A stretch of DNA of 44,637 nucleotides from contig CAZLGC010000003.1 of assembly GCA_964559275.1 (NCBI GenBank), positions 1 through 44,637 on the forward strand, given 5' to 3'. The stretch comes from an uncultured Candidatus Saccharibacteria bacterium. GTDB taxonomy: Bacteria; Patescibacteriota; CALEFQ01. Below the pieces are notes generated by a model. That model saw only the letters and a list, made by a program, of their open reading frames with translations, was not told the DNA's origin and made no database searches. How positions within the stretch are numbered: position 1 is the stretch's first letter; every line of letters starts with the position of its first letter. The position numbers and the translations under genes were made by a program. Of the stretch, positions 3,411 through 30,310 are shown one piece after another.

Positions 3411-3455
3411 ACAAAAGAAAACGGGCGGCGAAAGCGTGTTGCTTTCGTCGCCCGT
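3411..3455 (-). terminator. Intrinsic terminator closing the GC-rich minus-strand block
   Basis: On the minus strand, acgggcgacgaaagc-aacac-gctttcgccgcccgt forms a stem of about 15 bp with one G-U pair, followed by tttcttttgt. It lies 8 nt past the AAA+ stop codon. Confidence 0.6.
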
Positions 3456-3462
3456 AGATTCA

Positions 3463-5241
3463 CTAGCGGATACCCAGGATCTCCAGTTCCTGAATTCGCG
3501 CCTCCCAGGCCAGTCTTTTCTCCGGAGTACTCGGCTCCGGCAGCAGGCTCTGGCGGGTGCAAGCTAGCATGGCCTGCAGACTCTGGTATTCTCTGGTCAA
3601 ACCGACGTTTGGCAGGATCTGATCCTCAATGGCAGCCAGGATCTCGTCGACAGTCAGTGTGCCGTCACGTCCGGCCTTGGCAACCAGTTCGTCCCGGAGT
3701 CCGGCGTAGGCAGCGGCGTAGTAACCGGTGGTAGCAGCTTCGATTCGGTCCATTTCCTCCGGCGAGAATTTCTCTCCGGAAGGCAGCACCGGCTTCAGCA
3801 TCCAGTTCAGGAAGTCCTTACGGTCAGCTTCACTCGGATCCAGAATGGGCAGAATCAGGCTGCCGGCCCGGCCAACGCGTCTGAGGTCCGGAGAGAGCTG
3901 ATGAATCCGGGCAGTGTCCAGCATCCAGAAGATGCGTCCTCGCCACTTGGGATCGGACATCATTTTCTGGAAAGCGGCTGTTGCCCGGCGCTCGGTAGGA
4001 TGAACATCCTTGCCGACGCCACCGAACTGTAGATCCGCTTCCTCGATGTAGACGACCGCTGCATGCAAGGCATCCAGTACTCGGCGCAGACGCTCGATCA
4101 GGATGTCGGTACCCCCGAATTTGCTGGAACGGAAGTTCTTCAGGATCAGTACCGGCAGGTGGCATTCGGCCGCGATGGCCTGGGCCAGAAACGACTTGCC
4201 GCTACCGATCGGGCCGCAAAGCACAGCTCCGGTTAGAGCTCCCGTGCCAGTTCGCTGGATACGAGGGATGAACTCTTTCGAAACGTACTTCTTCAGCTGG
4301 CTGGTTCCGATGACGTCTTTGAGGGTATGCTCCGGACGGAGAAACCCAACGACGTCTTCGGCGCCCAGTGAGGCCTGAATGAACTCCTCAACCTTATCGG
4401 AAACATCCTTGGCTCGAAGCTTTTGTCCGCTGTGAACGGATTCGCGTAGTAGCTGCAGAGTGGCAGCGGTCGAAAGACCGGCGCAGTGCTCGGCCAGCTT
4501 GGTCTGTGAGCTCCAGAGGCGCAGCTCCATAGCGTCAGGTAGTCCGCGGTTGAACCAGGAAATGACATGGCGGTGACTGGAGATGTCAGGGGTGGGAATG
4601 GCGACGTTCATAATCGTCGGGATCCGGAGCACATCGGCATTGATCTTGCTTCTGAGCTCCGAAATCATGACAACCGTGTCGCCACCGTTCGTGAAGGCGG
4701 GATCTGCGAACCAATCGCGACAGGTGATAACCCGTCGCCGGTCCGGCTCGAACAGTCGGGACATCTCGGTGGCAGGCAACAGGAAGTGCGCGTCTTCGAT
4801 GAGAATGAGCAGGGCTTTCGGCAGCACCAGCTGGCCTTGCTCGTTGCACCCGCGGGAGCAGGTGCACATTGCCCGCAGGAGCTCCAAAGCATCTTCGGGA
4901 TTTTTCGCGGCTTTGGCCAGTCTGACGGAGAACTCCTGTGAGCCTTTGGCCCGTCCGCCGGCCCATTGTAGCCACGCTTTTTCGAAAAGTGTACGGTCTT
5001 CCTTGGAGACGAATCGAATCGGTTGGTACGGCTTGTAGGTGATGATAATCCTGCCTTCGGCCCGATCCCAGCGCTCCACCAGGTACTTGTCCAAAGGGAC
5101 GTATTCCCCGATGGAATCGCCTTCGTCAGGCACGAAGAAGAGGTCATCGATGTTGCCGGTGAGCAACACGGCGTTGGCTTGGTGGGAGTTGATGATCTGT
5201 CCCAACCTGGCCATGAATGGATAGGTATAGGAGCGTTTCAT
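3463..5241 (-). CDS. AAA+ ATPase, classic-clade-like C-terminal module preceded by a degenerate ATPase-like N-terminal half
   Basis: 592 aa. Walker A is GPIGSGKS and Walker B is VVYIEEAD. The arginine-rich RRVGRAGSLILPILDP resembles the RPGRFD second region of homology. The N-terminal half shows LLTGNIDD and LILIEDAH at the positions expected for P-loop and Walker B. There is no signal peptide or TM segment. The start codon overlaps the upstream stop as ATGA. Confidence 0.8.
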   Translation of the reverse strand: MKRSYTYPFMARLGQIINSHQANAVLLTGNIDDLFFVPDEGDSIGEYVPLDKYLVERWDRAEGRIIITYKPYQPIRFVSKEDRTLFEKAWLQWAGGRAKGSQEFSVRLAKAAKNPEDALELLRAMCTCSRGCNEQGQLVLPKALLILIEDAHFLLPATEMSRLFEPDRRRVITCRDWFADPAFTNGGDTVVMISELRSKINADVLRIPTIMNVAIPTPDISSHRHVISWFNRGLPDAMELRLWSSQTKLAEHCAGLSTAATLQLLRESVHSGQKLRAKDVSDKVEEFIQASLGAEDVVGFLRPEHTLKDVIGTSQLKKYVSKEFIPRIQRTGTGALTGAVLCGPIGSGKSFLAQAIAAECHLPVLILKNFRSSKFGGTDILIERLRRVLDALHAAVVYIEEADLQFGGVGKDVHPTERRATAAFQKMMSDPKWRGRIFWMLDTARIHQLSPDLRRVGRAGSLILPILDPSEADRKDFLNWMLKPVLPSGEKFSPEEMDRIEAATTGYYAAAYAGLRDELVAKAGRDGTLTVDEILAAIEDQILPNVGLTREYQSLQAMLACTRQSLLPEPSTPEKRLAWEARIQELEILGIR

Positions 5242-6221
5242 CGTAGAGCCTTTTTGGTTCCGTGCTTGTCCCTGACCTCTTGCCAGAAAGTCCGAAAGTA
5301 ATCGGCTGTCTGCAGGATGTCGGGATCATACACGGCCCGAAAGATCTCTTCTCGTTGCTGGGCGAAATCGTGGTAGTCGATCTTCATGTCTGGGGCGTAG
5401 ACGGGAGCTGAGCGATCGTAAACGATGGTGGCGCCAGGAAAGGTCTCGAAAACCTGTTCCCAGTCCCAGTACTGCGAGATGCCGACTACGCGGTCGGCAA
5501 CCGCAATGCCGGAGTTGAGCTCGTGGGTGACCAGCACGATGCTGGTACCGGAGAAAGGCCCGCCTGCTTCCTTGACGGTGACATTGATCTTGAGGAGCAG
5601 CTGGATCAACACCTCGATCGAGCGTTCATCGAGCCCGGTAAAAGGCTCGTCCAGCAGCAGAATGTCCGGGCGCATGATCATTGCTTGCGCAATGGCGACC
5701 CGTCTTTTCATACCGCCGGAAAGCTGATAGGGGTACTTGCTGGCTGCTTTCTCCAGGCCGAAGTCGGCCAGAAGATCACGAGCCTGCTCGAGCTGCTGGC
5801 GTCTGACCCGAAACCATTTCTGCCAGCGGAAGAATTGATCCGGCAGGCTTAGGTCACGCAGCATCAGTCCGTAGGCGACGTTCTTGACCGTCGTCATATA
5901 CGGGAAAAGCGAGTTTTCCTGAAAGACGATGCCGCGATCTAGTCCGGGTCGGGTCACTTCTGCCGGGTCCCCATTATGGGGGCTGTCCGGCGGGGGGTGA
6001 ATGATCACCTTCCCGTTTTTGGCCAGCTGGGTTCCCAGAATGGCCTTCAGTAGCGTGGTTTTGCCACAACCGCTGGGGCCGACACAGGCTACTGCCTGGC
6101 CGCGCACCAGCTGGCAGTTGATCTCGTGCAAAACGTTGTGCGGATTTGCCGGGTCCCCGAACCACTGGGAGACGTGCTGGCATTCCAGAGCAATGTTTTG
6201 CTGCATGGTGTCTGCCGACAT
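5238..6221 (-). CDS. ABC transporter ATP-binding protein (NitT/TauT-like) with C-terminal extension
   Basis: Walker A GPSGCGKTT, Q-loop VFQENSLFP, signature LSGGMKRRV, Walker B LLLDEPFTGLD and H-loop VTHE are all present. I place the start at the ATG at 6221 (MSADTMQQ...), which overlaps the permease stop as TAATG and follows GGAGGAG. The ORF-track start at 6272 is less likely. Confidence 0.9.
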   Translation of the reverse strand: MSADTMQQNIALECQHVSQWFGDPANPHNVLHEINCQLVRGQAVACVGPSGCGKTTLLKAILGTQLAKNGKVIIHPPPDSPHNGDPAEVTRPGLDRGIVFQENSLFPYMTTVKNVAYGLMLRDLSLPDQFFRWQKWFRVRRQQLEQARDLLADFGLEKAASKYPYQLSGGMKRRVAIAQAMIMRPDILLLDEPFTGLDERSIEVLIQLLLKINVTVKEAGGPFSGTSIVLVTHELNSGIAVADRVVGISQYWDWEQVFETFPGATIVYDRSAPVYAPDMKIDYHDFAQQREEIFRAVYDPDILQTADYFRTFWQEVRDKHGTKKALR

Positions 6222-7030
6222 TATTCTCCTCCTTGTGGTAGGTACCACGGGCACAGCTTGCGGCGCAGCCACAGCAGTCCGCGGTTCAAGAGATAGGTTA
6301 CAAGCCCCAGTTCCGCCAGGTAGATGAAGATGACATTCATGTGCATCTGCCTCATCATGATGCGGAGCCGGAACCCGATGCCGACGTCAGCGATGATCCA
6401 CTCAGCTGCGATGATGGCGATAAACGCCAAGGCCATTTGGATCCTCACGCCGTCGATGATCTTGGGCAACACCGTGGGCACGATTGTGTCCATGATGTTT
6501 TCTGCACTGGTAGCACCGTAGGTGTACGTGCGGTCAATGTATTCATCCGGGATGTCCTTGACGGCCAAGCTGATTGAAAGAGCCAGCATGGGAATCACCA
6601 CGAAGGCAATCATGGCCACGAACATTGTTTCACCTGGGCTGAAAACAACGAAGAACGGCGCAATCAACGCCGTTACCGGTAGTGAACTGATCGGCACCAA
6701 CAAGGTTTCGCAAAAGGCTGATACTCGGGGATAACTCCCCATTAGTACTCCCAGCACCACTGCGATCACGCAGCCGATCAGCATGCCGAGTAGGACCCGG
6801 CGTCCGGTGGCGACTGAATCCATGATGATCCAGCGTTCGCCCTCGAACTCATCTTCCTGAAAGGCTTTCTTGAAGCCCTCGGCAAACTGCGTGGCATTGG
6901 GCATGGTGGTGTCGTTCGGGAAACGATGCTTTTGTCTGAGCATCAGTCCCGTATAGACGGCTACCACCAGCACAATTGCCAGCAAACCGATAGCGGTGCG
7001 CTGTCGGCTGGTAATTGGCTGACGAATCAT
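6221..7030 (-). CDS. ABC transporter permease (BPD_transp_1 type, NitT/TauT-like)
   Basis: 269 aa with about 6 hydrophobic helices. An EAA-like loop reads GATSAENIMDTIVPTVLPKIIDG. It lies between SBP and ATPase genes. Confidence 0.85.
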   Translation of the reverse strand: MIRQPITSRQRTAIGLLAIVLVVAVYTGLMLRQKHRFPNDTTMPNATQFAEGFKKAFQEDEFEGERWIIMDSVATGRRVLLGMLIGCVIAVVLGVLMGSYPRVSAFCETLLVPISSLPVTALIAPFFVVFSPGETMFVAMIAFVVIPMLALSISLAVKDIPDEYIDRTYTYGATSAENIMDTIVPTVLPKIIDGVRIQMALAFIAIIAAEWIIADVGIGFRLRIMMRQMHMNVIFIYLAELGLVTYLLNRGLLWLRRKLCPWYLPQGGE

Positions 7031-7144
7031 CCTTCACCTTCCTTTCTGTATCTTTCTCTAAGACATTTCCAGTTTTGATTTCTAGCATTGTCAAAGAACA
7101 ATGCGTTTTTCCTCCTTTCTTCAGACTGTGATAATTCCCAGTTT

Positions 7145-7191
7145 GAAGAAAAGAGGGATTGGCGCGAAGCTGGAAGCTTGCGCCAATCCCT
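7145..7191 (-). terminator. Strong hairpin plus T-tract after the SBP gene (internal attenuator/terminator)
   Basis: On the minus strand, agggattggcgcaagct-tcc-agcttcgcgccaatccct forms about 17 bp with one bulge, followed by cttttcttc. Confidence 0.65.
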
Positions 7192-7208
7192 AAGTTGTCA
7201 ACGAAAGG

Positions 7209-8264
7209 CTACTTGTCGTAGCCCTTGACCCAGGTGGGGTCGAAGCGGAGGTCGCAACGGCCGACTTCATCGGCGGTGCCATAGGCTACCGTCGGCGTTC
7301 GGTCGGTGGCGCCTCGAACCTTGATGAATCCCTGCTGATGGATCATGACCGGAGCCATGTGCTGCTCACTGAGGATCTTCAGGCCATCGGCCCGAGTTCC
7401 GTAGAACTTGCAGCGGGTCCGGATGTCCTTGATCTGCTCGGCAGTGAAGGAGCCGAACTTGGCTCCGACGGCTCGGTGCGCTCGGTCGCTCGTCGAGGCA
7501 TCGGGAGAATCCAGCAACTTGTTCAGCTCGTAGTAGACCTCCACGATCAGGCCGGCGAACCTGGCGCCTTCCGGTTTCTGGAAGACGTCCTGGCCCATCA
7601 CGACCATGTCGACGATTTCGCCCTCGATGGCCTTGGAATCGGCCACGACGTGATAGTCGGGACGCTTGGCCAAGGTTTCGGAGCGCATCGGTTCCCACAG
7701 GGCTCCGTACAGATTCTTGCCCTGTTGGATGGCGGCAGCGACCGCGTCCGGATCCATGGAGGCGAACGGGTATTCCTTCAGATCGAGCCCGGCCTCTTCC
7801 AGATTCCGAACGTAGTTGTACTCGGCCACGCTGACATCCAGGCCGTTGACGGGTTTCCCCTTCAGGTCGGTGAGAGCCTTGATGCTCTTGGGAACACAGA
7901 TGGCGTCCGCACCGTAGCTGGTCGAAGTTGGTAGAATCGCGACGGCGGCTCGCTGCGGCGACAAGATCAGGATATCCAGGTTGGTAAGGCAGGCAGCCTC
8001 ACATTCCCGGGCCCCGTACTTGCCGATGGTACCATCGTAGCTGTCCCACATGATCTGCATATCGACGCCCCACTTCTCTTCGAGTGGGCCGACCTTGCCG
8101 GCATCCTGGTGGATGAGGCGGGCGGCGTGGGCGACGAAGAAGGCGGACCAGCTGGGATACTCGGAAACGGAGATGCGGTAGACCGGCAGCTTGCCGGCCA
8201 TGGTGGTGACCGGAACGATGAGCAGGCCCAGCGCCACGATCAGAATGGTCAAACGGTACTTCAT
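7209..8264 (-). CDS. ABC transporter substrate-binding protein (NMT1/SsuA/TauA-like), secreted
   Basis: The signal peptide is MKYRLTILIVALGLLIVPVTTMAG. The protein has a type-II periplasmic-binding-fold pattern (LWEP...). I place the start at the ATG at 8264, which is 9 nt downstream of AAGGAGG. Confidence 0.8.
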   Translation of the reverse strand: MKYRLTILIVALGLLIVPVTTMAGKLPVYRISVSEYPSWSAFFVAHAARLIHQDAGKVGPLEEKWGVDMQIMWDSYDGTIGKYGARECEAACLTNLDILILSPQRAAVAILPTSTSYGADAICVPKSIKALTDLKGKPVNGLDVSVAEYNYVRNLEEAGLDLKEYPFASMDPDAVAAAIQQGKNLYGALWEPMRSETLAKRPDYHVVADSKAIEGEIVDMVVMGQDVFQKPEGARFAGLIVEVYYELNKLLDSPDASTSDRAHRAVGAKFGSFTAEQIKDIRTRCKFYGTRADGLKILSEQHMAPVMIHQQGFIKVRGATDRTPTVAYGTADEVGRCDLRFDPTWVKGYDK

Positions 8265-8294
8265 TTTTCTTTCCTCCTTCACGATTGATGAACG

Positions 8295-8337
8295 AAAAAG
8301 GTAGCCCGTGGTCAGGTAGTGTCACCGGACCACGGGC
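8295..8337 (-). terminator. Intrinsic terminator after the PspA-like gene
   Basis: A perfect 10-bp stem forms between gcccgtggtc (8304..8313) and gaccacgggc (8328..8337). On the minus strand it is followed by tacctttttcg. Confidence 0.6.
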
Positions 8338-8357
8338 GAATTTACGGTGCTGAGGCG

Positions 8358-9194
8358 CTAGTCCTCGGGAACGGAGATGTCCACCTCGGCGGCGAGCTGC
8401 TGCTCGGCCTCGCTTGGCTTCTTCTCCTCATCCTCGCCCCAGAGCTCGGCGTCGAGATCATCCAGGTGCTCGGAGCCTTCGACAGCCTCCAGCAGTTCGT
8501 CGAGCTGGCGGTCGCCGGCAGTTCCGGCCATAGCTTCGGCCGAATCGGCCCGGGCCACAGCCTCGCGTCGCTGTCGCTCGAGTGTCGAGAGACGCTCGCC
8601 GGTGCGGTCTTCGGAGATCCCAGCTTCCATGTCGGCGAGTCGCTGTCGTTCCTGGGCGGACAGAACGTCGGCGATGGCCTCGTGCTTGTCCTGAGCGACC
8701 TTCTCCATGCGGCGCTGCTGTTCTCGGAGGCGACGGACGTTGCGGTCGATCCGCTCGGTATACTGCTTGATGTTGGTCTGCAGCTCTTCCTCGCGCTGCT
8801 TCTTCTCGGCCAGAGTGGTCGAGTAGTCCTTGAAGGCATCGCGGAATTTGATGAAATCCGGATCCTTCTCGATGGCGGCGCGATCCAGGCCTTCACCTTC
8901 GAGCCTGGCCTTGATCTGCGCCAGCTTCTGCTTGGCGGCGATCACGGCGCGCTCGAACTTGGTGATGTCGCCGGTCAGGGCTTCGAGCTGTGCGAGACGT
9001 CGCTCGCGCTCGGCCCGGATGCTGGCATCGACATCCATGTACTCGCGGATGTTCGTCTTCAGCTCTCGGATGACGGCGTCGTACTCAGCCCTCATGGCGT
9101 CGGGATCCTTGGCGATTCGGTCCGCAGCCCGATCGGCGCGACCCGTGAAGATCGCGATGAACGAGCGCAAGACCCTTCCCAGTGCTCTGAACAT
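8358..9194 (-). CDS. PspA/IM30 family (ESCRT-III superfamily) protein
   Basis: 278 aa, almost entirely heptad-like helices. The N-terminal amphipathic segment MFRALGRVLRSFIAIF is followed by KDPDAMRAEYDAVIRELKTNI, matching the PspA pattern (A)EDPxK..L.Q.I.dm. The C-terminal tail is acidic. AAAGGAG lies upstream. Confidence 0.7.
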   Translation of the reverse strand: MFRALGRVLRSFIAIFTGRADRAADRIAKDPDAMRAEYDAVIRELKTNIREYMDVDASIRAERERRLAQLEALTGDITKFERAVIAAKQKLAQIKARLEGEGLDRAAIEKDPDFIKFRDAFKDYSTTLAEKKQREEELQTNIKQYTERIDRNVRRLREQQRRMEKVAQDKHEAIADVLSAQERQRLADMEAGISEDRTGERLSTLERQRREAVARADSAEAMAGTAGDRQLDELLEAVEGSEHLDDLDAELWGEDEEKKPSEAEQQLAAEVDISVPED

Positions 9195-9220
9195 TCTGTG
9201 CTCCTTTCTGTTGTTGCAAG

Positions 9221-9982
9221 TTATTCTTCTTCAAGAAGTTCCTCGCAAACCTCAGGGTTTAGCATGTCACGTTGCTGCTGGCGGACTTTCTTGTCAATCC
9301 GCAAGCGTTCTTCCAGTTCGTGCCTGATGGAAGATAGAGTGGTGTCAGTGGCTGGTGCCGCTACCGGCTCCAGATCCTGGATACCACTCACAATTCCGGT
9401 AAGAGACTGGACACTGGCTTCGACCTCGGTAATGAGATCTCGCCGTCTAGCCTCTAGGGCCTCACGGGCCGGTCCGTGGTTTAGATCATCCACCTTGCGA
9501 TAAAGAGCCAGCGATTGTTCCAACTGGTCAACGCAGGAGTAGAAGAGTTTATTCACCAACGACATGACGTCGTGGGTAAGGCGACCACTAAGGGCCCTGG
9601 CCCAGGGTTCGTTTTGCTCAAACCCAGCTCTGAGCACTTTTGTGATCTCACGGAGTTCTTGTAGTAGCTGTTCGGTACGGGGATCGTCATCGTAGTGCAA
9701 GTCTGTGTAGAGCTTGTCCAATCTGGCGGTTCGCTTTTCCTGCTCTTTGCTCTGAACACGGATGCGCGTTTCTTCCGCCAGCTTGTCAGACTCCAGTGTG
9801 AAGCGAGTGATGGCGATACCAGGTCCCAGAACAATGCCGACCAGGCCACCCAGAGCAGCCAGCGGCATACTCAGAGCGACACCGGCACCCAGGGCTGTTA
9901 CTCCGGCCAGAAAGGGGCCGATGGTAACCGGACTGGTAATGAGATTCAAGAGGTATTCCTTACGGAATGCCTTTCTGTCCAT
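9221..9982 (-). CDS. Membrane protein: N-terminal TM hairpin plus long helical domain, family unknown
   Basis: 253 aa. Two hydrophobic helices are present (ITSPVTIGPFLAGVTALGAGVAL and LAALGGLVGIVLGPGIAI). The rest is helical and charged. A strong AAAGGAGG SD lies upstream. The gene ends 27 nt before the PspA-like start. Confidence 0.6.
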   Translation of the reverse strand: MDRKAFRKEYLLNLITSPVTIGPFLAGVTALGAGVALSMPLAALGGLVGIVLGPGIAITRFTLESDKLAEETRIRVQSKEQEKRTARLDKLYTDLHYDDDPRTEQLLQELREITKVLRAGFEQNEPWARALSGRLTHDVMSLVNKLFYSCVDQLEQSLALYRKVDDLNHGPAREALEARRRDLITEVEASVQSLTGIVSGIQDLEPVAAPATDTTLSSIRHELEERLRIDKKVRQQQRDMLNPEVCEELLEEE

Positions 9983-10009
9983 AGCGGCCTCCTTTCTGAG
10001 GCAAGGGGA

Positions 10010-11572
10010 TCAGTAGGGTGCCTGTGCCAGTTCCAGCACGACACACGCCTGATCCGTTTTCGATTTCTTGGCGGTTTCCGCTCGCAGGCGGTTCGCCGGG
10101 ATTCCGTAGTTCTTGAGATAGGTAACGACAGCGTCAGCTCGGCGCTTGGCCAAGAGCTTGTTGGCATCGCTGTCACCGTCGCCCAGGGTGTGTCCCTTGA
10201 CCTTGATGTAAAAGTCGGACAACACCTTGAGCTCCTCGGCAGCGGTTTCGATGTCAGTTTCCGAAAAGGCACTGATATCGGCACTGCCGCGCCTGAATTC
10301 GATCGGTGCAATGCGCTTGCTGCCGGACGGCACCAGTGCTTGCCACTGCGCTTCAGTAAGTGCGGGAAGCACCGTAGTGCCCCTCACTCCGGCGAGATCA
10401 TTCGCCGAGGGGCCGGCACCATCGATGAGATTGACTCGCTTGGCGGGGTGGAAACCCTCGCCGTGCAGCGCGCGCAGAATCCCGTCGTAGTAGAGCGTAT
10501 GCTCCTTTCCCGGCAGGGGATGGTGAGCCAGAGCGTTGGTTGGCAGGAGAACTTTCTCGATCAGGAACGAAATCACGTCCTCGAGAGGACGGATTCCGGG
10601 GTTCTGCTCGATGTTGAAATAAGCGTAGTTCTCCTTGCAGTTTGTCCACCTGATGCCAGCGGCGATCTGTTCGGCTTGCTGGCGGCTGACACTTTCGCCC
10701 TGAGCCTTGGCGTCGGCTACAATCAACTCAACCATGCGGTCTTGCTGAGAGTAGTAGTAAAGGGCTTTGAGATAAGCCTCGACGATGGTTTTGACCAAGT
10801 CCGGGTTTTCGCCCAGAAAAGACCTTTCTGCGTAGAGACCATCCAAGATACAGCCCTTACACTGGGACGAATCCAGGAGCACGATCACATCGGGATCTTT
10901 GCGCGCCAGCGACACGTACGGCTCCCACAGGACATAAGCCCGGGGAAGTGCACGGTTGGCGCTCATCATCTCCCGATAGACGGCTTCGGCGTCATCTCGG
11001 TGGATAGCCCAGTCGGTCGGCATCATATCCAGAGCCCACTGAGCAACCATTACTTGCGCAATGGTTTCAGACGGCGAGCTAGGCGGCAAAACGATCCGGC
11101 CTTCGGCGCAGTTGAGGGCGTCGATGTTGGGAACGGCGCTCTTGAATGCCACGATAGCATCCGCGCCGACCGTCTCATCAATTCCCACGATCTGCGAGGC
11201 CGGGTACAAGTTGCCGGCTTTCACGCCCGCCTTGATGTAGCTTCCGATCGGGAAGACTGCGAACGGGACTTTGCCAGCCGCGAGCATCTCGACTCGCTTC
11301 TGGTAGTCCAGAACCGGTTTGTAAGCCCAGCGAATGCCTTGCTTGGCCAGAGCGTTTTCGAAGCTCTGGGAGCGCAAGATGGCATAACCGCTGAACCCGT
11401 CGCCCAGCCATTCCAGCTCGGTGTGATACTGGGACTGCGAACTGGTCGACTTGACCAGCCGCCCTTTCATCATCGGCTTGACGATGAAACGATATCCCAG
11501 CGCCAGTGCGGCGATGAGGACAATCCAGGCAACCACCATGATAAGGATGCCCTTACGTGAACGTTCGGCCAT
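10010..11572 (-). CDS. Membrane-anchored SBP-like (NMT1-type) domain fused to a C-terminal OmpA-like domain
   Basis: 520 aa. The N-terminal TM helix is ILIMVVAWIVLIAALALGY. The central region resembles sulfonate/nitrate-type binding proteins (VLWEPYVSLA). The C-terminus VKGHTLGDGDSDANKLLAKRRADAVVTYL matches the OmpA/MotB peptidoglycan-binding motif (GHTD..G...N..LS..RA.AV..YL), but the canonical Asp is replaced. Confidence 0.7.
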   Translation of the reverse strand: MAERSRKGILIMVVAWIVLIAALALGYRFIVKPMMKGRLVKSTSSQSQYHTELEWLGDGFSGYAILRSQSFENALAKQGIRWAYKPVLDYQKRVEMLAAGKVPFAVFPIGSYIKAGVKAGNLYPASQIVGIDETVGADAIVAFKSAVPNIDALNCAEGRIVLPPSSPSETIAQVMVAQWALDMMPTDWAIHRDDAEAVYREMMSANRALPRAYVLWEPYVSLARKDPDVIVLLDSSQCKGCILDGLYAERSFLGENPDLVKTIVEAYLKALYYYSQQDRMVELIVADAKAQGESVSRQQAEQIAAGIRWTNCKENYAYFNIEQNPGIRPLEDVISFLIEKVLLPTNALAHHPLPGKEHTLYYDGILRALHGEGFHPAKRVNLIDGAGPSANDLAGVRGTTVLPALTEAQWQALVPSGSKRIAPIEFRRGSADISAFSETDIETAAEELKVLSDFYIKVKGHTLGDGDSDANKLLAKRRADAVVTYLKNYGIPANRLRAETAKKSKTDQACVVLELAQAPY

Positions 11573-11646
11573 GACGGCTCCTCCTTCCTTCTGTTTTCAT
11601 CTGAAAACCTGAGGTTGTTGTTTCGTTGACAAGTTGTAAATGTTCC

Positions 11647-11745
11647 GAAGAGGCACAGGCCTCTTCTTTCCCAAAAAACCAAGTGTTTGGTTATTCATGG
11701 AAAGGAGAGGTGGGAGGGGCTGCCACTTGCGTGACAACCCCTCCC
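11647..11745 (-). terminator. Cluster of three hairpins in the 200-nt spacer between the vWA gene and the next gene (candidate internal terminator/processing site)
   Basis: The hairpins are gggagggg...cccctccc (11712..11745, about 15 bp including G-U pairs, GCAA loop), aaccaa-acac-ttggtt followed by tttttt on the minus strand (11673..11692), and gaagaggc-acag-gcctcttc (11647..11666, perfect 8 bp). Confidence 0.45.
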
Positions 11746-11772
11746 TACCAGCTGTGTGTGTTTGTGCCGTTG

Positions 11773-12711
11773 CTACAGACTGCCGAACATGGCTGCCAGC
11801 AGGCAAATGACGATCACCACCGCTATGATGATCAGGAGGATCATCAGAAAGCCGGATCCGTCACCGGTCCCAGGCGGAACGGTGGTGCCGGGCTGCTGGC
11901 TGGTATTGGCGCTTGTCTGTGAGCTGCTGTTGGTCTGGTTGGCAGCGTGGGCTGCCTGTGATTGAGGCGATTCGCCGATCGGGTGGTTGCCGGAACTGGC
12001 GAGCGCGTTGATGGCAGCGCTGGCAAGTTCCAACGGAACGGAAGCCAGGAGGTCGTAGGGATCCTCGCCGCCGTAGTCATCGCTGCCGCCGTCGCCGACT
12101 TCAGCCAGTACATCGGAGATGGCTCCCTTCAGTACGGCCGAGTCTTTGACGTTGCTGTAGCTGTGGACTTTGGTGGCCAAGATGTGGTCACTGTCCATCT
12201 CAACACCGATGCAGTCAACACGGATACCTCGGGACAGGATGTCCGGGGTATAGCGATTGACCAGGTTGGTGTCCTGGGCCTGGCCGTCCGTGATTACCAG
12301 CAGGCGGTAGGTCCCGTACCCATGCTGCTTCTGTCGTGAGGCAAGCAGGGCGTCGGCGGCGACCTTCATGTAGGCCCCCAAAGGGGTGCCCCCACCGGCT
12401 TTGACCCGGCTCACCGCATTCTTGAATGCGGGCTTGCGCAGGGGTCCCAGCGGATACGTCCAACGTGTCTTGTCCTCGGGAAAAACCAGGAGGCCGACAT
12501 TGGTTGCATCCGGAATGGAATCGATGGCCGTCTTGACCGCCTCGCGGGCATCCCTGATCTTCTTGCCCTTCATCGATCCCGAAGAATCGAGGAGGATGAC
12601 CAGGTTGTCCGTGAACTCGGCGGCGCTGGCCAGACTCGCCGACAGTAGCCAGACGGCTACCAAGGCGAGGCTGATCCAGGGGAGAGCGTGAATCTTCTTC
12701 ATGCTACTCAC
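11773..12711 (-). CDS. Secreted von Willebrand factor A (vWA) domain protein with C-terminal TM anchor
   Basis: The signal peptide is MKKIHALPWISLALVAVWLLSASLASA. MIDAS motifs are DSSGSMKG, GGTPLG and ITDGQAQD. A Ser/Thr/Gln/Asn-rich linker precedes the hydrophobic tail FLMILLIIIAVVIVICLLAAMF. Confidence 0.85.
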   Translation of the reverse strand: MSSMKKIHALPWISLALVAVWLLSASLASAAEFTDNLVILLDSSGSMKGKKIRDAREAVKTAIDSIPDATNVGLLVFPEDKTRWTYPLGPLRKPAFKNAVSRVKAGGGTPLGAYMKVAADALLASRQKQHGYGTYRLLVITDGQAQDTNLVNRYTPDILSRGIRVDCIGVEMDSDHILATKVHSYSNVKDSAVLKGAISDVLAEVGDGGSDDYGGEDPYDLLASVPLELASAAINALASSGNHPIGESPQSQAAHAANQTNSSSQTSANTSQQPGTTVPPGTGDGSGFLMILLIIIAVVIVICLLAAMFGSL

Positions 12712-12714
12712 CCC

Positions 12715-14550
12715 CTAAAAGTCGAAGTCAGCCGGCTGCATTGCCTCCGCTGACACCGACACCAGCGCGCACTCGACACGCATGTTGGCAGCCGCTTCCT
12801 GCTTGTTCCGCGGCTTGGCGTTGAACGGTTCCCGGATACCGACTCCCTGGACGGTGATCTGGCTGGCATCCAGCCGGATTCCCTTGGACTTGGCATAAGC
12901 CAGGAGTTCATCCCGGAAAGCCTCAGCCCGGTCGGCAGAGAGTCTTAGTGCCACCGTCATCACTTCCCGTGGGTCCCACTGGGCGTGACCGTCGAACTGG
13001 CCACTTTCCACCAGGCGGACCATCTCCTTGGTTGCAGTCAGATTCAGGGGTCTGCCGTTGAGAGAATAGCTCCAGTTACCTCGGGATCCGCTTCGTTTGA
13101 TCATCTCCTTGGCCATGCCGGCGTTGATCAGGTGTAATAGCGTCTTGGTTGGATCGGTGTGTCCCCGAACAGCGACGGTAGCACCGGAGTACTGGCTGGC
13201 CAGCTTGATGACCTCGTCGAAATCACGGCCGTACTTGGACCGGTCGAAGGTGCGCTGATTGGGTTCGAAGTAGGTGCAGAAGCTGTACTTGGTCTTCTCA
13301 TCCAGCTGTCCGCCGGCGGCCAGGGCTTCGATCTCGTCGGCTACGGCTTCCGGCTTGAAACGGGCGGTCTGGACCACGGAGGTGTTTCGGAGGTTGTTCT
13401 TGAAGGTGGGGGAGTTCCAATCGAGGGCGGACGGGAGCAGATCGATGCGGCGAGTGGCGTAGCCCAGCGTCGTGGCCATGTCTAGCGACTTGGCGTTGAA
13501 GGCGTCAAAGCCGGTGACGTTGTTCTCCTCAGTGAAGAAAACGACATTGCCAGGGTGACCAACCGGCTGACAGTCCAGGAAAAGGCCGTGGGCTTCATCC
13601 ATGTTCGGGACCACGTCTTTGCCGAAGAAGTTGATGGCGGTCTGCAGCGTGGCGCGGTAGTTGCGATCGCGCGGGTTCTTGCGCAGCTGCACCATCTTCT
13701 CGGCTTCCTGGAGATACGCAACTGTCAGCTTTTCGCACCAGGCGGAGTGGCTCTGGTAGAAATCGCTGCGCACAGCGACGACGTCCGCGATGGAACGTCC
13801 CAGCTCCGAAGTCGAAATCAGACGGTGTGCATCGGCGACCGTACCCTCGGCTCCCGGATTCTCCGGGTCGCCAAGCAAACCGAACATATCGGGTGTGACG
13901 ACGAAGCAGGCATCGATGGATCGATCCTTGGCGAATTTCACCGCCGGCCCCTTGGGACCGCTGATGTCATCCACCCAGACGACCTTGATGTCTGACCAGG
14001 TCAGGCCGGCCGTTTTCAGCATGTCATCGAGCATGCCCACGTGTGGTCCGCCCTTCTGCAGACATACTGTTGCTCCCTTCAACTGGGAGAGCTGCTTGAT
14101 GTGCTTGCGGGCGATACAGTGGTCACCGCGCGACCAGGTCATCTGGAACAGAATGATCGGCTTGGTGCGCGAATCGTTGCCGACGGCTTCGCTCGCCATG
14201 GCAATCATGCGGTAGGTGCCGCGCAAGAACGGAGTCTTGCCGGACATGTAGTTGCGGACCTGCCCGTAGAAGTCATCGCCGGGAATCAGCTTGATGCTGA
14301 CTCCGAACTTGTTGAGCGTCGATCCCCGCTGAGTGATGACGTTGTTCCCGTTGCCGGAGAACCACATGTATTCACCACCCCACAGAATCGCGGGCATGTC
14401 GTAGGTCTGGGCCTCACGGACGGTTCCGATTGTGACCCGGCCGAGATCCTGGCTGAAGCTCGAGACGAGCTTACCGGCATTCGCCGGCACGGTCAGGGTG
14501 GCGATCACCAGGATCGCCAGGAACAGAGTGTAACTTCGCATCTTCATCAT
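12715..14550 (-). CDS. Secreted SBP-like domain fused to a C-terminal OmpA-like domain carrying an insertion
   Basis: 611 aa. The signal peptide is MRSYTLFLAILVIATLTVPANA. The central region has a type-II binding-protein-like fold. The C-terminus has VAVRGHTDPTK and, about 75 aa later, LSADRAEAFRDELLAY, which is a split OmpA-like motif. AAAGGAGG lies 5 nt upstream of the ATG. Confidence 0.7.
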   Translation of the reverse strand: MMKMRSYTLFLAILVIATLTVPANAGKLVSSFSQDLGRVTIGTVREAQTYDMPAILWGGEYMWFSGNGNNVITQRGSTLNKFGVSIKLIPGDDFYGQVRNYMSGKTPFLRGTYRMIAMASEAVGNDSRTKPIILFQMTWSRGDHCIARKHIKQLSQLKGATVCLQKGGPHVGMLDDMLKTAGLTWSDIKVVWVDDISGPKGPAVKFAKDRSIDACFVVTPDMFGLLGDPENPGAEGTVADAHRLISTSELGRSIADVVAVRSDFYQSHSAWCEKLTVAYLQEAEKMVQLRKNPRDRNYRATLQTAINFFGKDVVPNMDEAHGLFLDCQPVGHPGNVVFFTEENNVTGFDAFNAKSLDMATTLGYATRRIDLLPSALDWNSPTFKNNLRNTSVVQTARFKPEAVADEIEALAAGGQLDEKTKYSFCTYFEPNQRTFDRSKYGRDFDEVIKLASQYSGATVAVRGHTDPTKTLLHLINAGMAKEMIKRSGSRGNWSYSLNGRPLNLTATKEMVRLVESGQFDGHAQWDPREVMTVALRLSADRAEAFRDELLAYAKSKGIRLDASQITVQGVGIREPFNAKPRNKQEAAANMRVECALVSVSAEAMQPADFDF

Positions 14551-28001: not shown

Positions 28002-28622
28002 ATGATTCTTTCCGACCGCGATATCAAGAAATATATCAAAGAGGGCAAACTTAGTTTTGACCCGATGCCTGATCTGGAGACTCAATTGTCTGGGGCTTCG
28101 CTTGATATGACGCTGTCAAACGAATTTCGGGTTTTTCAACACACCTCTATTCCTTATATTGATGTTTCCCGTCCCAAAACATTCAAGGGGCTAACCAAAA
28201 AAGTTGTAGTTGAAGACGGTTGTCCGTTTGTGCTACACCCCAATGAGTTTGTCTTGGGTATCATGCGGGAATCAATTAAGCTTCCGAAAAATCTATCGGT
28301 CAGGATTGACGGCAAAAGTAGCTTGGGAAGAATTGGCATCGTGGTTCATTCAACGGCCGGTCATGTCAATCCCGGGCACGAGGGAGCTCTGACTTTGGAA
28401 ATCTCCAACATCGGGATGATGCCGGTAGCACTCTATCCGGGTATGAATATATGCCAGTTAGTTTTCCAGCAACTGAGTTCGCCTGCACAAGTGGGTTATA
28501 CCGAGCGTAAAACGTCTAAGTATGCTCACCAGAAATCGCCCGGTGAGAGTAAGATTTTTACTGAGCCGACGGCAAAAGAGTCCAAACAAGAATGTTTCAA
28601 TCTCAAAAACCCCAAAAAATAA
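28002..28622 (+). CDS. dcd: dCTP deaminase (possibly dUMP-forming; not decidable here)
   Basis: The protein aligns along its length with Dcd by eye (MILSDRDIKKYI, IDGKSSLGRIGIVVH, VNPGHEGALTLEISN). Confidence 0.9.
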   Translation: MILSDRDIKKYIKEGKLSFDPMPDLETQLSGASLDMTLSNEFRVFQHTSIPYIDVSRPKTFKGLTKKVVVEDGCPFVLHPNEFVLGIMRESIKLPKNLSVRIDGKSSLGRIGIVVHSTAGHVNPGHEGALTLEISNIGMMPVALYPGMNICQLVFQQLSSPAQVGYTERKTSKYAHQKSPGESKIFTEPTAKESKQECFNLKNPKK

Positions 28623-28636
28623 AAAAATCAACATAC

Positions 28637-30310
28637 ATGGCTACCGCTTCAAACCTTCTCAAAAAAATCAACACCCTCATCGGTTCCAATAAAAAACCGG
28701 GTTGGCCGGTGGCAGTGGCGGATAGGGTAGCCTACCCGCGCAATCAGAAAGTCAGAGAGGCAAATGTCGCTGTGACTTTTTTGTGGACAATGCGGGACGC
28801 GATTTTGCCCAAGTTGGGAAAGGAAAATCTGGCAATTGCGACTAATTTCTATACCCCGGCCGGTCTGGCGGGCATGGTCAGAAATATTTTGGCGAATCCT
28901 TACATTCGCTATATTGTCTTGATTGGCGAGGAGTATTCTTCCAAGGCCAAAGATGATCAGATATCTGATCGCACCAGTGCCAATGCTCTGCGGGCCTTTT
29001 TCAAACAGGGAGTGAATAAAGACCGGGAACTTGAAGGCTTTGAGGAATCAATCCATTTCGATGAAAATATACCGGCCGCGGCGATCAATGATGTGGCCAA
29101 AAATGTCGAGCTGATAGACATCAATTCCAAAATGCCCAAAGCCGGCCTGGATGAAAAAATCAAAGAAGTTAACCGGTTGCTCCAGGAACTGCCGCGCAAA
29201 AAACCGTTGTCGCCGGAACCGCGTACGTATCCGTACGAAAAGCAGGCTAAATCTTTTCCTTACCCTGGTGGTCCTATGCTGGTTAGGGGAAACACCATTC
29301 CGCAGACCTGGCTGGAAATAATGCACACAATTTACCGCTACGGCACAGAAAACCTGATGGATGCAGGTACCGACCGGTGGGTGAAAGAAATCAACAACTT
29401 CGTGGCGGTCATACATGACCCCCAGAACCTTGATTTGTCTTTTAATCCTTTCTTAGTCCCTCTTAGTGCGGAAAAGATCGAAGCTTATCAAAAGGAAATT
29501 CTGTCACCCGAGCTGCCGGAAGGCAAGGCTTACACATATGGTAACAAGCTTCGAGCCTATCTTTATGAAAAACCGGCTTTCATTGACTATCTAAAAACCA
29601 CTGATGAACTAACTGACTTTGAGTTCGGCCAGGGAGATGATCTCGATAAAAACATCAAGAAAAAGAATGGGGTTTGCGAGATTGACCAGCTGGAGGATTT
29701 GATTGACGCGCTCCGACGTAATCGTTATTCCAAATCAGGGGTTGCCATCACTTGGCATGTTCAGGATGAGCTGATGCGTAAACACAAGAGCAGCCCTTGC
29801 TTAATCCTGATTCAGCCTATGGTTGTTAACGAAAAACTCAACTTGGCGGCCTATTTCCGTAGCCATGACATGGCGCAGGGGTGGCCCGAGAATGCCTACG
29901 GACTGGCAGCAATCCAAAAGAAGATCGCCGAGGGACTGGATGTTGACACCGGTATCCTCACTATAATTTCCAGCAGTGCCCAAATCTATAATAATTACTA
30001 CGCCCAGGTGGAAAAGGCGCTACAAAAATATCGACAGTGGGAACCGGACTTTGCTGACCCCTTCGGTTTCTATGTAATAAAAGTTGAGGATAAGAAAATT
30101 ATTGTTACTCATCACCATCCTGAAAATAAACAAGAGCTGGCCAAGTTCAGCGGAGAAAATGCTCGCCAGCTCCGTCGTGAAATAGCTTCTCAAAACCGCC
30201 TAGATATTCATCACGCTATGTACCTCGGCGAGGAATTAGCCCGGGCCGAGGCTTGCCTTAAAAACGGGCAAGAATATATTCAGGATAAAACAGCCGATGA
30301 AGAAGATTAG
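28637..30310 (+). CDS. Thymidylate synthase (ThyA)-like domain fused to an N-terminal MtrA-like domain
   Basis: The C-terminal half has SPCLILIQP (catalytic Cys as in PPCH), YFRSHDMAQGWPENAYGLAAI (compare [21 protein letters not shown]) and SSAQIYNNY (compare GDTHLYSNH). The N-terminal region (VAVTFLWT..., LAGMVRNILANPYIRYIVLIGEE) resembles MtrA-family sequences as I remember them. I prefer the ATG at 28637 over the track start at 28592, which overlaps dcd. Confidence 0.7.
   Translation: MATASNLLKKINTLIGSNKKPGWPVAVADRVAYPRNQKVREANVAVTFLWTMRDAILPKLGKENLAIATNFYTPAGLAGMVRNILANPYIRYIVLIGEEYSSKAKDDQISDRTSANALRAFFKQGVNKDRELEGFEESIHFDENIPAAAINDVAKNVELIDINSKMPKAGLDEKIKEVNRLLQELPRKKPLSPEPRTYPYEKQAKSFPYPGGPMLVRGNTIPQTWLEIMHTIYRYGTENLMDAGTDRWVKEINNFVAVIHDPQNLDLSFNPFLVPLSAEKIEAYQKEILSPELPEGKAYTYGNKLRAYLYEKPAFIDYLKTTDELTDFEFGQGDDLDKNIKKKNGVCEIDQLEDLIDALRRNRYSKSGVAITWHVQDELMRKHKSSPCLILIQPMVVNEKLNLAAYFRSHDMAQGWPENAYGLAAIQKKIAEGLDVDTGILTIISSSAQIYNNYYAQVEKALQKYRQWEPDFADPFGFYVIKVEDKKIIVTHHHPENKQELAKFSGENARQLRREIASQNRLDIHHAMYLGEELARAEACLKNGQEYIQDKTADEED

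Follow-up and report, generated by a model that had tools for sequence, protein, structure and literature searches.

The disassembly and remodeling of bacterial polymers of the ESCRT-III type, such as those of PspA and Vipp1, is the question addressed by the present analysis. It concerns a stretch of 44,637 nucleotides from an uncultured Candidatus Saccharibacteria bacterium (contig CAZLGC010000003.1 of assembly GCA_964559275.1; hereafter the window), in which the gene for a very probable remote relative of PspA, here called P, is found in one block of genes with the gene for a tandem AAA+ ATPase, here called A. A first-pass annotation, made from the sequence alone, had proposed the two as a candidate Vps4-like remodeling pair. 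As a candidate, this idea is supported by the PspA evidence from the P family, by the classic-clade character of A and by the conserved pairing of the two genes. Relatives of A were found in 569 genomes, one genome per species being scanned, and the best 80 loci together with three metagenome loci make up the 83 loci that are compared below.

Gene content of the block and the proteins P and A

The block occupies positions 3463-14550 (all positions refer to the whole window) and consists of nine co-directional genes on the minus strand, transcribed in the order O1-V-O2-T-P-S-M-B-A; all features of the block given below lie on this strand. P (8358-9194) encodes the diverged protein of 278 residues that is assigned below to PspA/IM30 and the ESCRT-III superfamily, and A (3463-5241), the last gene of the operon, encodes the tandem AAA+ ATPase of 592 residues. 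Between them lie, as annotated before, three genes of an ATP-binding cassette (ABC) transporter. S (7209-8282; 357 residues) is a periplasmic substrate-binding protein (SBP) of the NitT/TauT type, which is NMT1/SsuA-like (TIGR03427, E 5e-25, with matches to taurine and SsuA families). M (6221-7030; 269 residues) is the permease (PF00528, E 1e-13, with SaoP, NtrB and TauC-type matches), and B (5238-6272; 344 residues) is the ABC ATPase (PF00005, E 3e-29), with a probable start at 6221 that would give 327 residues, as in the gene call of the metagenome locus L002. Upstream of P by 26 bp, T (9221-9982; 253 residues) encodes a protein with two transmembrane (TM) helices and a helical bundle. It is preceded by O2 (10010-11572; 520 residues), with an N-terminal membrane anchor, an SBP-like region (weak matches to NMT1 and TIGR03427) and an OmpA peptidoglycan-binding domain (PF00691, E 6e-13, residues 426-500), and by V (11773-12711; 312 residues), a secreted vWA protein with a signal peptide and a C-terminal TM helix (PF00092, E 1e-15). 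The first gene, O1 (12715-14550; 611 residues), encodes a secreted protein with a signal peptide, an NMT1/SsuA-like SBP region (SsuA_fam, E 9e-5) and a weak OmpA-like end (23.7 bits, under the cut-off); it is kept as first gene in 28 loci.

Along the direction of transcription the gaps between these genes measure 3, 200, 27, 26, 75 and 178 bp and are followed by two overlaps, with the stop codon of B and the start codon of A overlapping as ATGA. In the first-pass annotation the block had been taken to cover 3463-9982. The gene positions given there, including that of the 592-residue AAA+ protein as final gene, are borne out by the open reading frames (ORFs) of the minus strand; its extent has to be revised, since the unit reaches 14550 and includes the two SBP-OmpA proteins and the vWA protein. 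The hairpin terminators that had been placed between P and A do not hold up: terminator-like hairpins are at chance level (12 observed versus 11.3 +/- 3.7 in shuffles), the minus-strand hairpins within the block (6674-6654 and 10591-10576) fall in coding sequence, and a mismatch-free scan found no minus-strand terminator-like site in any intergenic gap from P to A. A likely operon terminator, read from the sequence and missed by the mismatch-free scan, is found at 3421-3455 directly past the stop codon of A, where an imperfect GC-rich hairpin (13/14 bp) is followed by TTTTCTTTT.

The PspA signal of the P protein in the window is reached only by way of its orthologue family, because direct searches with it are blank. 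A word-seeded search with P returned just two relatives, and an exhaustive HMMER search extended this to a compact family, whose 324 representatives are, with few exceptions, about 270 residues long. From the 80 genomic loci 71 full-length orthologues were obtained, which are 25-33% identical to the P protein of the window, one of the most diverged members of the family. When the family profile was compared with the sequences of the PDB, the four best matches were Vipp1 and PspA chains (E about 2e-5; 1.7e-5 for Vipp1), aligned in a colinear manner (query 39-94 with Vipp1 30-85, and query 135-237 with Vipp1 101-200). PF04012, the PspA/IM30 family, is matched by 26/43 orthologues and is by far the most frequent Pfam family among them. 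Its gathering score of 33.9 is passed by three Poribacteria orthologues (L014, 37.3 bits; L035, 36.8 bits; L019, 34.1 bits), the matches being colinear over profile positions 3-206 of 220. An AlphaFold2 model of P, built with 106 family sequences, has a predicted local distance difference test score (pLDDT) of 80, with values above 90 through the hairpin, and predicts helices at residues 2-29, 31-100, 112-190, 198-226, 228-239 and 244-251. This is the order alpha0, hairpin, alpha4-5, and both the order and the predicted lengths fit the ESCRT-III layout. Residues 2-29 (9108..9191) form the candidate alpha0 membrane helix, in which R7 and G18 are invariant in 43 orthologues, and residues 31-190 (8625..9104) form the long helical hairpin (alpha1 and alpha2-3) that is aligned to the Vipp1 hairpin. 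When the model was used in a Foldseek search of the PDB, the five best matches were Vipp1 (E 3e-4 to 5e-3, about 240 aligned columns), with 6zvr, 8qbs, 8qbw and 7o3x among the best-matching structures. Within the ESCRT-III superfamily, P thus very probably belongs to the PspA/IM30 branch as a remote member. The PspA identity proposed earlier for the 278-residue protein stands on the orthologue family, the profile and the predicted fold, and not on a PF04012 match of its own.

PF00004 is found in A at residues 340-462, with 47.5 bits for a cut-off of 21.2. The best matches in the PDB are Cdc48, VAT and p97 D1, followed by AFG2, NSF, NVL and spastin; Vps4 does not appear among the first 60, and with the CdvC model A reaches 19.6 bits, where the cut-off is 650. 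The family numbers more than 160 full-length homologues, each of about 605 residues, and its conservation extends from end to end. The N-terminal and C-terminal halves of A were aligned by hhalign over 149 columns (probability 91%, E 1e-6), as expected for a tandem protein. The N-terminal copy, D1 (residues ~1-300, 4342..5241), is a degenerate AAA+ domain that lacks a P-loop, with LTGNIDDLF at the place of Walker A and LILIEDAH at the place of Walker B; these replacements are themselves conserved in 25 homologues as LTGNIxDLF and LIlIExAD. The second copy, D2, contains the Walker A motif GPIGSGKS (residues 343-350, 4192..4215), pore loop 1 RSSKFGG (residues 371-377, 4111..4131; family consensus RSxWFGQ), the Walker B motif VVYIEEAD (residues 396-403, 4033..4056; DEAD in 80/83 relatives) and the second region of homology (SRH) SPDLRRVGRAG with its arginine fingers (residues 450-460, 3862..3894). 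No variation is seen at R454, R455, G457 and R458 among 26 sequences, the SRH of the family being RRPGR. D2 further has a sensor-2-less lid of the GYSxA type (GYYAAA/YSAAS), and the pore loop of the family is p97-D2-like, reading [M/Q/K]-W-[F/Y]-G in 76 of the 83 loci and KYY in four. No GAFTGA loop, Sigma54 domain, helix-turn-helix (HTH) or MoxR signature was detected in A. Judged by these motifs, A is a tandem classic-clade AAA+ protein with a nucleotide-dead D1 and an active D2; it is Cdc48-like, with its D2 nearest to Cdc48/p97 D1, and would not be a Vps4 orthologue. The earlier assignment to the classic clade and not to the PspF type is confirmed, the Walker A, Walker B and SRH motifs on which it was based all being present. 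A belongs to neither of the families that had been named as contrary outcomes, CbxX/SpoVK and MoxR, and P is present at about 95% of those of its loci that are adequately sampled. The term 'Vps4-like' covers the presence of a classic AAA+ protein beside an ESCRT-III-type gene; it does not extend to orthology to Vps4, a microtubule-interacting and transport (MIT) domain or a single ATPase cassette.

The C-terminal part of P (residues 228-278, 8361..8513) is an acidic tail with a conserved short helix and a terminal (L/V)P(E/L) motif, and is a candidate element for recruitment of the ATPase. All 71 full-length orthologues end in a motif of the (L/V)P[E/L/V] type (LPE in 37, LPL in 29, LPV in two, PED in two and PEE in one), and an EFDALxG-like motif occurs within the last 60 residues in 55/71. 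The order within the tail is a short EFDALxG helix, a variable acidic linker and the terminal motif. The PED pair is the lineage of the window, which ends in VPED, so that the tail of P in the window is atypical. By analogy with the tails of ESCRT-III proteins that bear MIT-interacting motifs (MIMs), we infer that the tail may be the site where A engages. Arrays of two to four P paralogues, located downstream of T, were observed in Poribacteria (L014, L019, L022, L026, L028, L049, L052, L054, L058, L075 and L083). The upstream copies in Poribacteria are short (175-258 residues) and end ahead of the conserved tail; the arrays are reminiscent of composite ESCRT-III polymers, in which subunits with and without Vps4-binding motifs are combined.

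T had been suggested as the membrane partner of P. It contains two TM helices within residues 18-63 according to hydropathy and a predicted five-helix cytoplasmic bundle (AlphaFold2, pLDDT 83), and lies directly upstream of P in 44/83 loci. None of 32 members matched Snf7 or PspA in Pfam, a profile search of the PDB gave nothing significant, hhalign of T against P gave 2%, and the best Foldseek matches (E 0.055) were designed helical proteins. At the sensitivity of these four methods T was rejected as a TM-anchored paralogue of Snf7 or PspA, and it may be too diverged for Snf7 similarity to be detected. A role as membrane anchor or nucleator for P is plausible.

Conservation of the P-A pair

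P is located upstream of A and in the same orientation in 74/83 loci. Where the upstream sequence extends for at least 7 kb P is present in 60/63 loci, and where it extends for at least 3 kb in 67/70; of the nine loci that lack P, six lie on contigs that break off within about 2 kb of A. The pairing spans more than eight phyla. The linkage, which the first-pass annotation had called only suggestive, is therefore much stronger than was supposed, and it often takes the form of a bare dyad. Dyads of this kind, in which about 15-100 bp separate P from A and ABC, vWA and OmpA genes are absent, occur in four phyla (Poribacteria, Nitrospiraceae, Hydrogenedentota and Acidobacteriota). The full nine-gene order is found in Verrucomicrobiota, Sumerlaeota, Kiritimatiellae, Lentisphaerae, Desulfobacterales and CSSED10-310. 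Intermediate forms exist as well: L070 has O1-V-O2-T-P-A with the transporter genes absent, and a variant in Poribacteria consists of T, two to four P paralogues, a 602-residue ORF and A. More than 40 of the loci with a P-A pair are without the vWA gene, and A directly follows B in 41/83 loci. Because bare dyads exist and L070 is devoid of transporter genes, P-A is the invariant core and the other genes are accessory. Gene identities, domain architecture and conserved linkage are direct observations of this comparison. At L001 a homologue with 49% identity belongs to a block of the same nine genes, placed among different flanking genes, which fits movement of the block as a unit. A reverse check that started from distant members of the P family was mixed, with one member in a block, one solitary and one uninformative.

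Some further features of these loci were recorded. The 602-residue ORF between the last P gene and A (L022:8133-9941, with an equivalent in other Poribacteria loci) has no Pfam match. Upstream genes at L020 include those for a DUF7133/cytochrome-c protein and a 2-hydroxyacid dehydrogenase. Distant P-family members that have no ATPase nearby are those at L084:3531-4403 and on the P0269 contig; one of them adjoins an HNH nuclease and lipopolysaccharide or sugar genes, and the other is surrounded by many small ORFs, an ADP-ribosylglycohydrolase and PTH2, which gives it a phage-like look.

Possible mechanism and relation to known systems

We lean slightly towards a mechanism in which hexamers of A extract or thread P and so remodel a membrane-bound P polymer, with the long form of the operon coupled to a trans-envelope assembly of ABC transporter, SBP-OmpA and vWA proteins. 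P polymers are predicted to form at the inner membrane, on its cytoplasmic side. A hexamers would engage P, most plausibly via its conserved flexible C-terminal tail with the EFDALxG helix, the acidic linker and LPE, and would thread or extract P subunits through the D2 pore, upon which the P polymer would be remodeled or recycled. This would be the role that Vps4 has on ESCRT-III, carried out with a Cdc48-like enzyme. To this pair the long operon adds T, an ABC importer of the NitT/TauT type, a periplasmic vWA protein and two SBP-OmpA proteins tethered to peptidoglycan, which suggests a link in the long form between membrane remodeling and a complex for sensing or transport across the envelope. 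Polymerisation, recognition of the tail, ATP-driven disassembly and the roles of the accessory genes are what we infer from these loci. A broader proposal is possible and is put forward tentatively: at least eight bacterial phyla may possess an ESCRT-III-plus-unfoldase machine whose origin is independent of Vps4, in which a Cdc48-like tandem AAA+ protein would recognise the LPE tail of a PspA-clade polymer and take this polymer apart or constrict it, tailed and tail-less paralogues (in Poribacteria) would form composite polymers, and the long form would be coupled mechanically to a trans-envelope complex of ABC, SBP-OmpA and vWA proteins that is tethered to peptidoglycan.

The combination has been described before in computational work. 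Ravi et al. (2024; mSystems 9:e00847-23, PMC11237479) reported that bacterial PspA is occasionally found beside a protein with two AAA+ domains, the N-terminal copy being inactive, and proposed ATP-dependent membrane remodeling comparable to that by Snf7/Vps4; their exemplars are Clostridium AEY64320/AEY64321 and the neighborhood of Ca. Handelsmanbacteria OGG56892.1. Compared by component list, that class and the window have in common a PspA-type protein, a tandem AAA+ protein with an inactive N-terminal copy, an ABC ATPase, a permease, a PBPB(SBP)+OmpA protein and a TM helical protein. The gene order differs, the window has in addition the vWA protein, an SBP of its own and a further SBP-OmpA protein, and the class has a membrane-anchored divergent Snf7, whereas T has no detectable Snf7 similarity. 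The block is consequently a new, divergent member of an operon class that had already been predicted computationally, to which the present comparison adds the bare-dyad core, the co-occurrence of about 95%, the conserved tail and the tail-less paralogues. Since the idea is already in print as a genomic prediction, the value of these results lies in its confirmation and sharpening.

Several better known systems resemble the pair in part. With ESCRT-III/Vps4 (CdvB/CdvC) it shares an ESCRT-III-superfamily gene beside a classic-clade AAA+ gene with pore loop and SRH, a conserved C-terminal peptide past a flexible linker, and paralogue arrays with and without the tail. It differs in that A is without an MIT domain and the Vps4 beta-domain and is a tandem protein with a dead D1, nearer to Cdc48/p97 D1, and in that P belongs to the PspA/IM30 branch and not to Snf7 and has a tail motif unlike the known MIMs. 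In haloarchaeal 'Halo_adaptin' loci a weakly PspA-like gene lies directly upstream of the gene for an MIT-less Cdc48-related ATPase (Makarova et al., 2024; mBio e00335-24). These loci likewise have a PspA-like and Cdc48-related pair, with ABC substrate-binding proteins in related loci; however, they are archaeal, their ATPase has a Cdc48/VAT N-domain in place of a degenerate D1, and their wH/ESCRT-II-like (winged-helix) genes are absent here. Cdc48, p97 and VAT themselves give the best sequence matches to A and share with its family the tandem AAA architecture, the W-F pore loop (of p97 D2), the SRH arginine fingers and the GYSxA lid; the D1 of A, by its sequence, is incapable of nucleotide binding, a double-psi-barrel N domain is lacking, and A has about 600 residues compared to about 720-840 in the PDB chains. 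The psp system of E. coli likewise has a genetic coupling between PspA and an AAA+ protein, PspF; this one, however, is an enhancer-binding protein for sigma54 that carries GAFTGA and an HTH and is inhibited by PspA, and A is a classic-clade protein with neither.

A number of results weigh against the remodeling mechanism or against the identities on which it is built. P of the window alone leaves PF04012 unmatched even at E<=10, yields nothing relevant in NCBIfam, and has no PspA or Vipp1 match among the PDB sequences. The top PDB match of the family profile has a bias of 21 bits, and its sole aligned domain scores 14.0 bits (E 0.23) compared to 27.7 for the whole sequence; coiled-coil composition raises such profile scores. 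The Foldseek TM-scores are modest (0.39-0.61), an hhalign comparison of the family with one verified PspA sequence of E. coli gave a probability of 1.4%, in a weak test as the effective number of sequences (Neff) of the template was 1, and the hydrophobic moment of the N-terminal helix (0.52) is reached by 12% of shuffles, so that its amphipathicity is not distinctive. Pfam searches found no MIT domain in A, and in the window itself A may be impaired or altered, to judge from its Walker B EE and its pore loop KFG. With regard to linkage, L004, L020 and L047 keep M-B-A with unrelated genes upstream and no P or T within 8-10 kb, where P may be encoded elsewhere or have been lost, and the solitary distant P-family member has no AAA+ gene within 8 kb. 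No experimental study of any member was found in the literature.

Four other explanations were considered, two of which concern the identity and the linkage of the genes. P could be a generic long coiled coil whose likeness to PspA and Vipp1 is compositional, the pair then being some other machine. This would fit the lack of a direct match for P of the window, the negative hhalign comparison with E. coli PspA, the weak matches that many coiled-coil families give to the orthologues, and the name 'chromosome segregation ATPase' that a P homologue has in one source. It is nevertheless improbable, given that PF04012 is the best, colinear and full-length match and exceeds the curated cut-off in three orthologues, that the top PDB sequence and the top five structural matches are Vipp1, and that the helix layout is that of ESCRT-III. 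A fortuitous arrangement of functionally unrelated genes, which the three genes between P and A in the window might suggest, is effectively refuted by the presence of P with A in 60/63 loci in more than eight phyla and by the travel of the block as a unit.

The remaining two explanations accept the pair and differ on the target of the ATPase. The main alternative is that P is a regulator or adaptor of A and not its substrate. A would then have different clients, such as transporter subunits or damaged membrane proteins, and P would gate it in response to membrane stress. The one established relationship between PspA and an AAA+ protein is of this kind, E. coli PspA binding and inhibiting PspF (PMC7619361), the conserved dyad fits a regulator and its enzyme as well as a substrate and its enzyme, and A of the window is translationally coupled to the ABC ATPase gene. 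However, A lacks the hallmarks of PspF and belongs to another AAA+ clade, the conserved flexible tail of P and the tail-less paralogues are typical of a threaded substrate, and the bare dyad loci hold no other conserved candidate client, which makes a regulatory role of P rather unlikely. Pairs of AAA+ and vWA proteins are a common bacterial theme, and with a vWA gene in the block and A directly after B in about half of the loci, A could instead serve envelope proteins, as in a MoxR-vWA-like pair or as an assembly factor for the ABC/SBP-OmpA complex, with P as a passive scaffold. V is secreted, though, and A cytoplasmic; A is PF00004-type and not MoxR (AAA_3/AAA_5), and the vWA gene is not obligate, since vWA, ABC and OmpA genes are missing from the P-A dyads and the ABC genes from L070. 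Service to the envelope proteins therefore has a low probability.

If threading of P by A is true, the P-A family would stand for the ATP-driven remodeling of an ESCRT-III homologue in bacteria and for a convergent, Cdc48-derived answer to the problem that Vps4 solves, in the form of a compact two-protein system that is found as a bare dyad in many genomes. Such biology runs counter to textbook statements; in a 2025 review, a Vps4-like ATPase "appears absent in bacteria" (PMC7619361).

The window copy and its surroundings

The block has a GC content of 58.3%, compared to 46.8% and 47.7% in its flanks, and in most other genomes the GC content of the block is that of its flanks. The flanks in the window encode housekeeping proteins (alanine racemase, RmuC, an AddA-type helicase-nuclease, PheST, GyrB, GatB, ThrRS and DnaE). 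Because of this composition against flanks of about 47% that carry housekeeping genes, the block seems to have been acquired horizontally in recent times and forms a foreign island in the bacterial chromosome. The window as a phage or mobile element was rejected, with housekeeping flanks, no tRNAs in the window and no integrase among the scanned ORFs. Anti-phage defense was rejected likewise, as PADLOC gave marginal or generic matches only (TRIP13, 16.7 bits; LmuB coiled coil, 18.2 bits; ABC-type matches for B).

The copy of the pair in the window is itself unusual. Its pore loop K-F-G is aromatic only at the second position, and among the 83 loci the SKF pore loop and the Walker B EE are found only at L002 and L003, which are near-identical metagenome copies of the window block. 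Because of these variants of A, the atypical tail of P and the foreign GC content, the lineage of the window is suggested to be a fast-evolving and possibly functionally altered copy, which makes it a poor choice for experiments, for which a canonical orthologue is preferable. Outside the block, on the plus strand at 28592-30310, an ORF of 572 residues encodes an unusual fusion of MtrA-like, partial thymidylate-synthase-like and PterinBD-DUF4346 regions.

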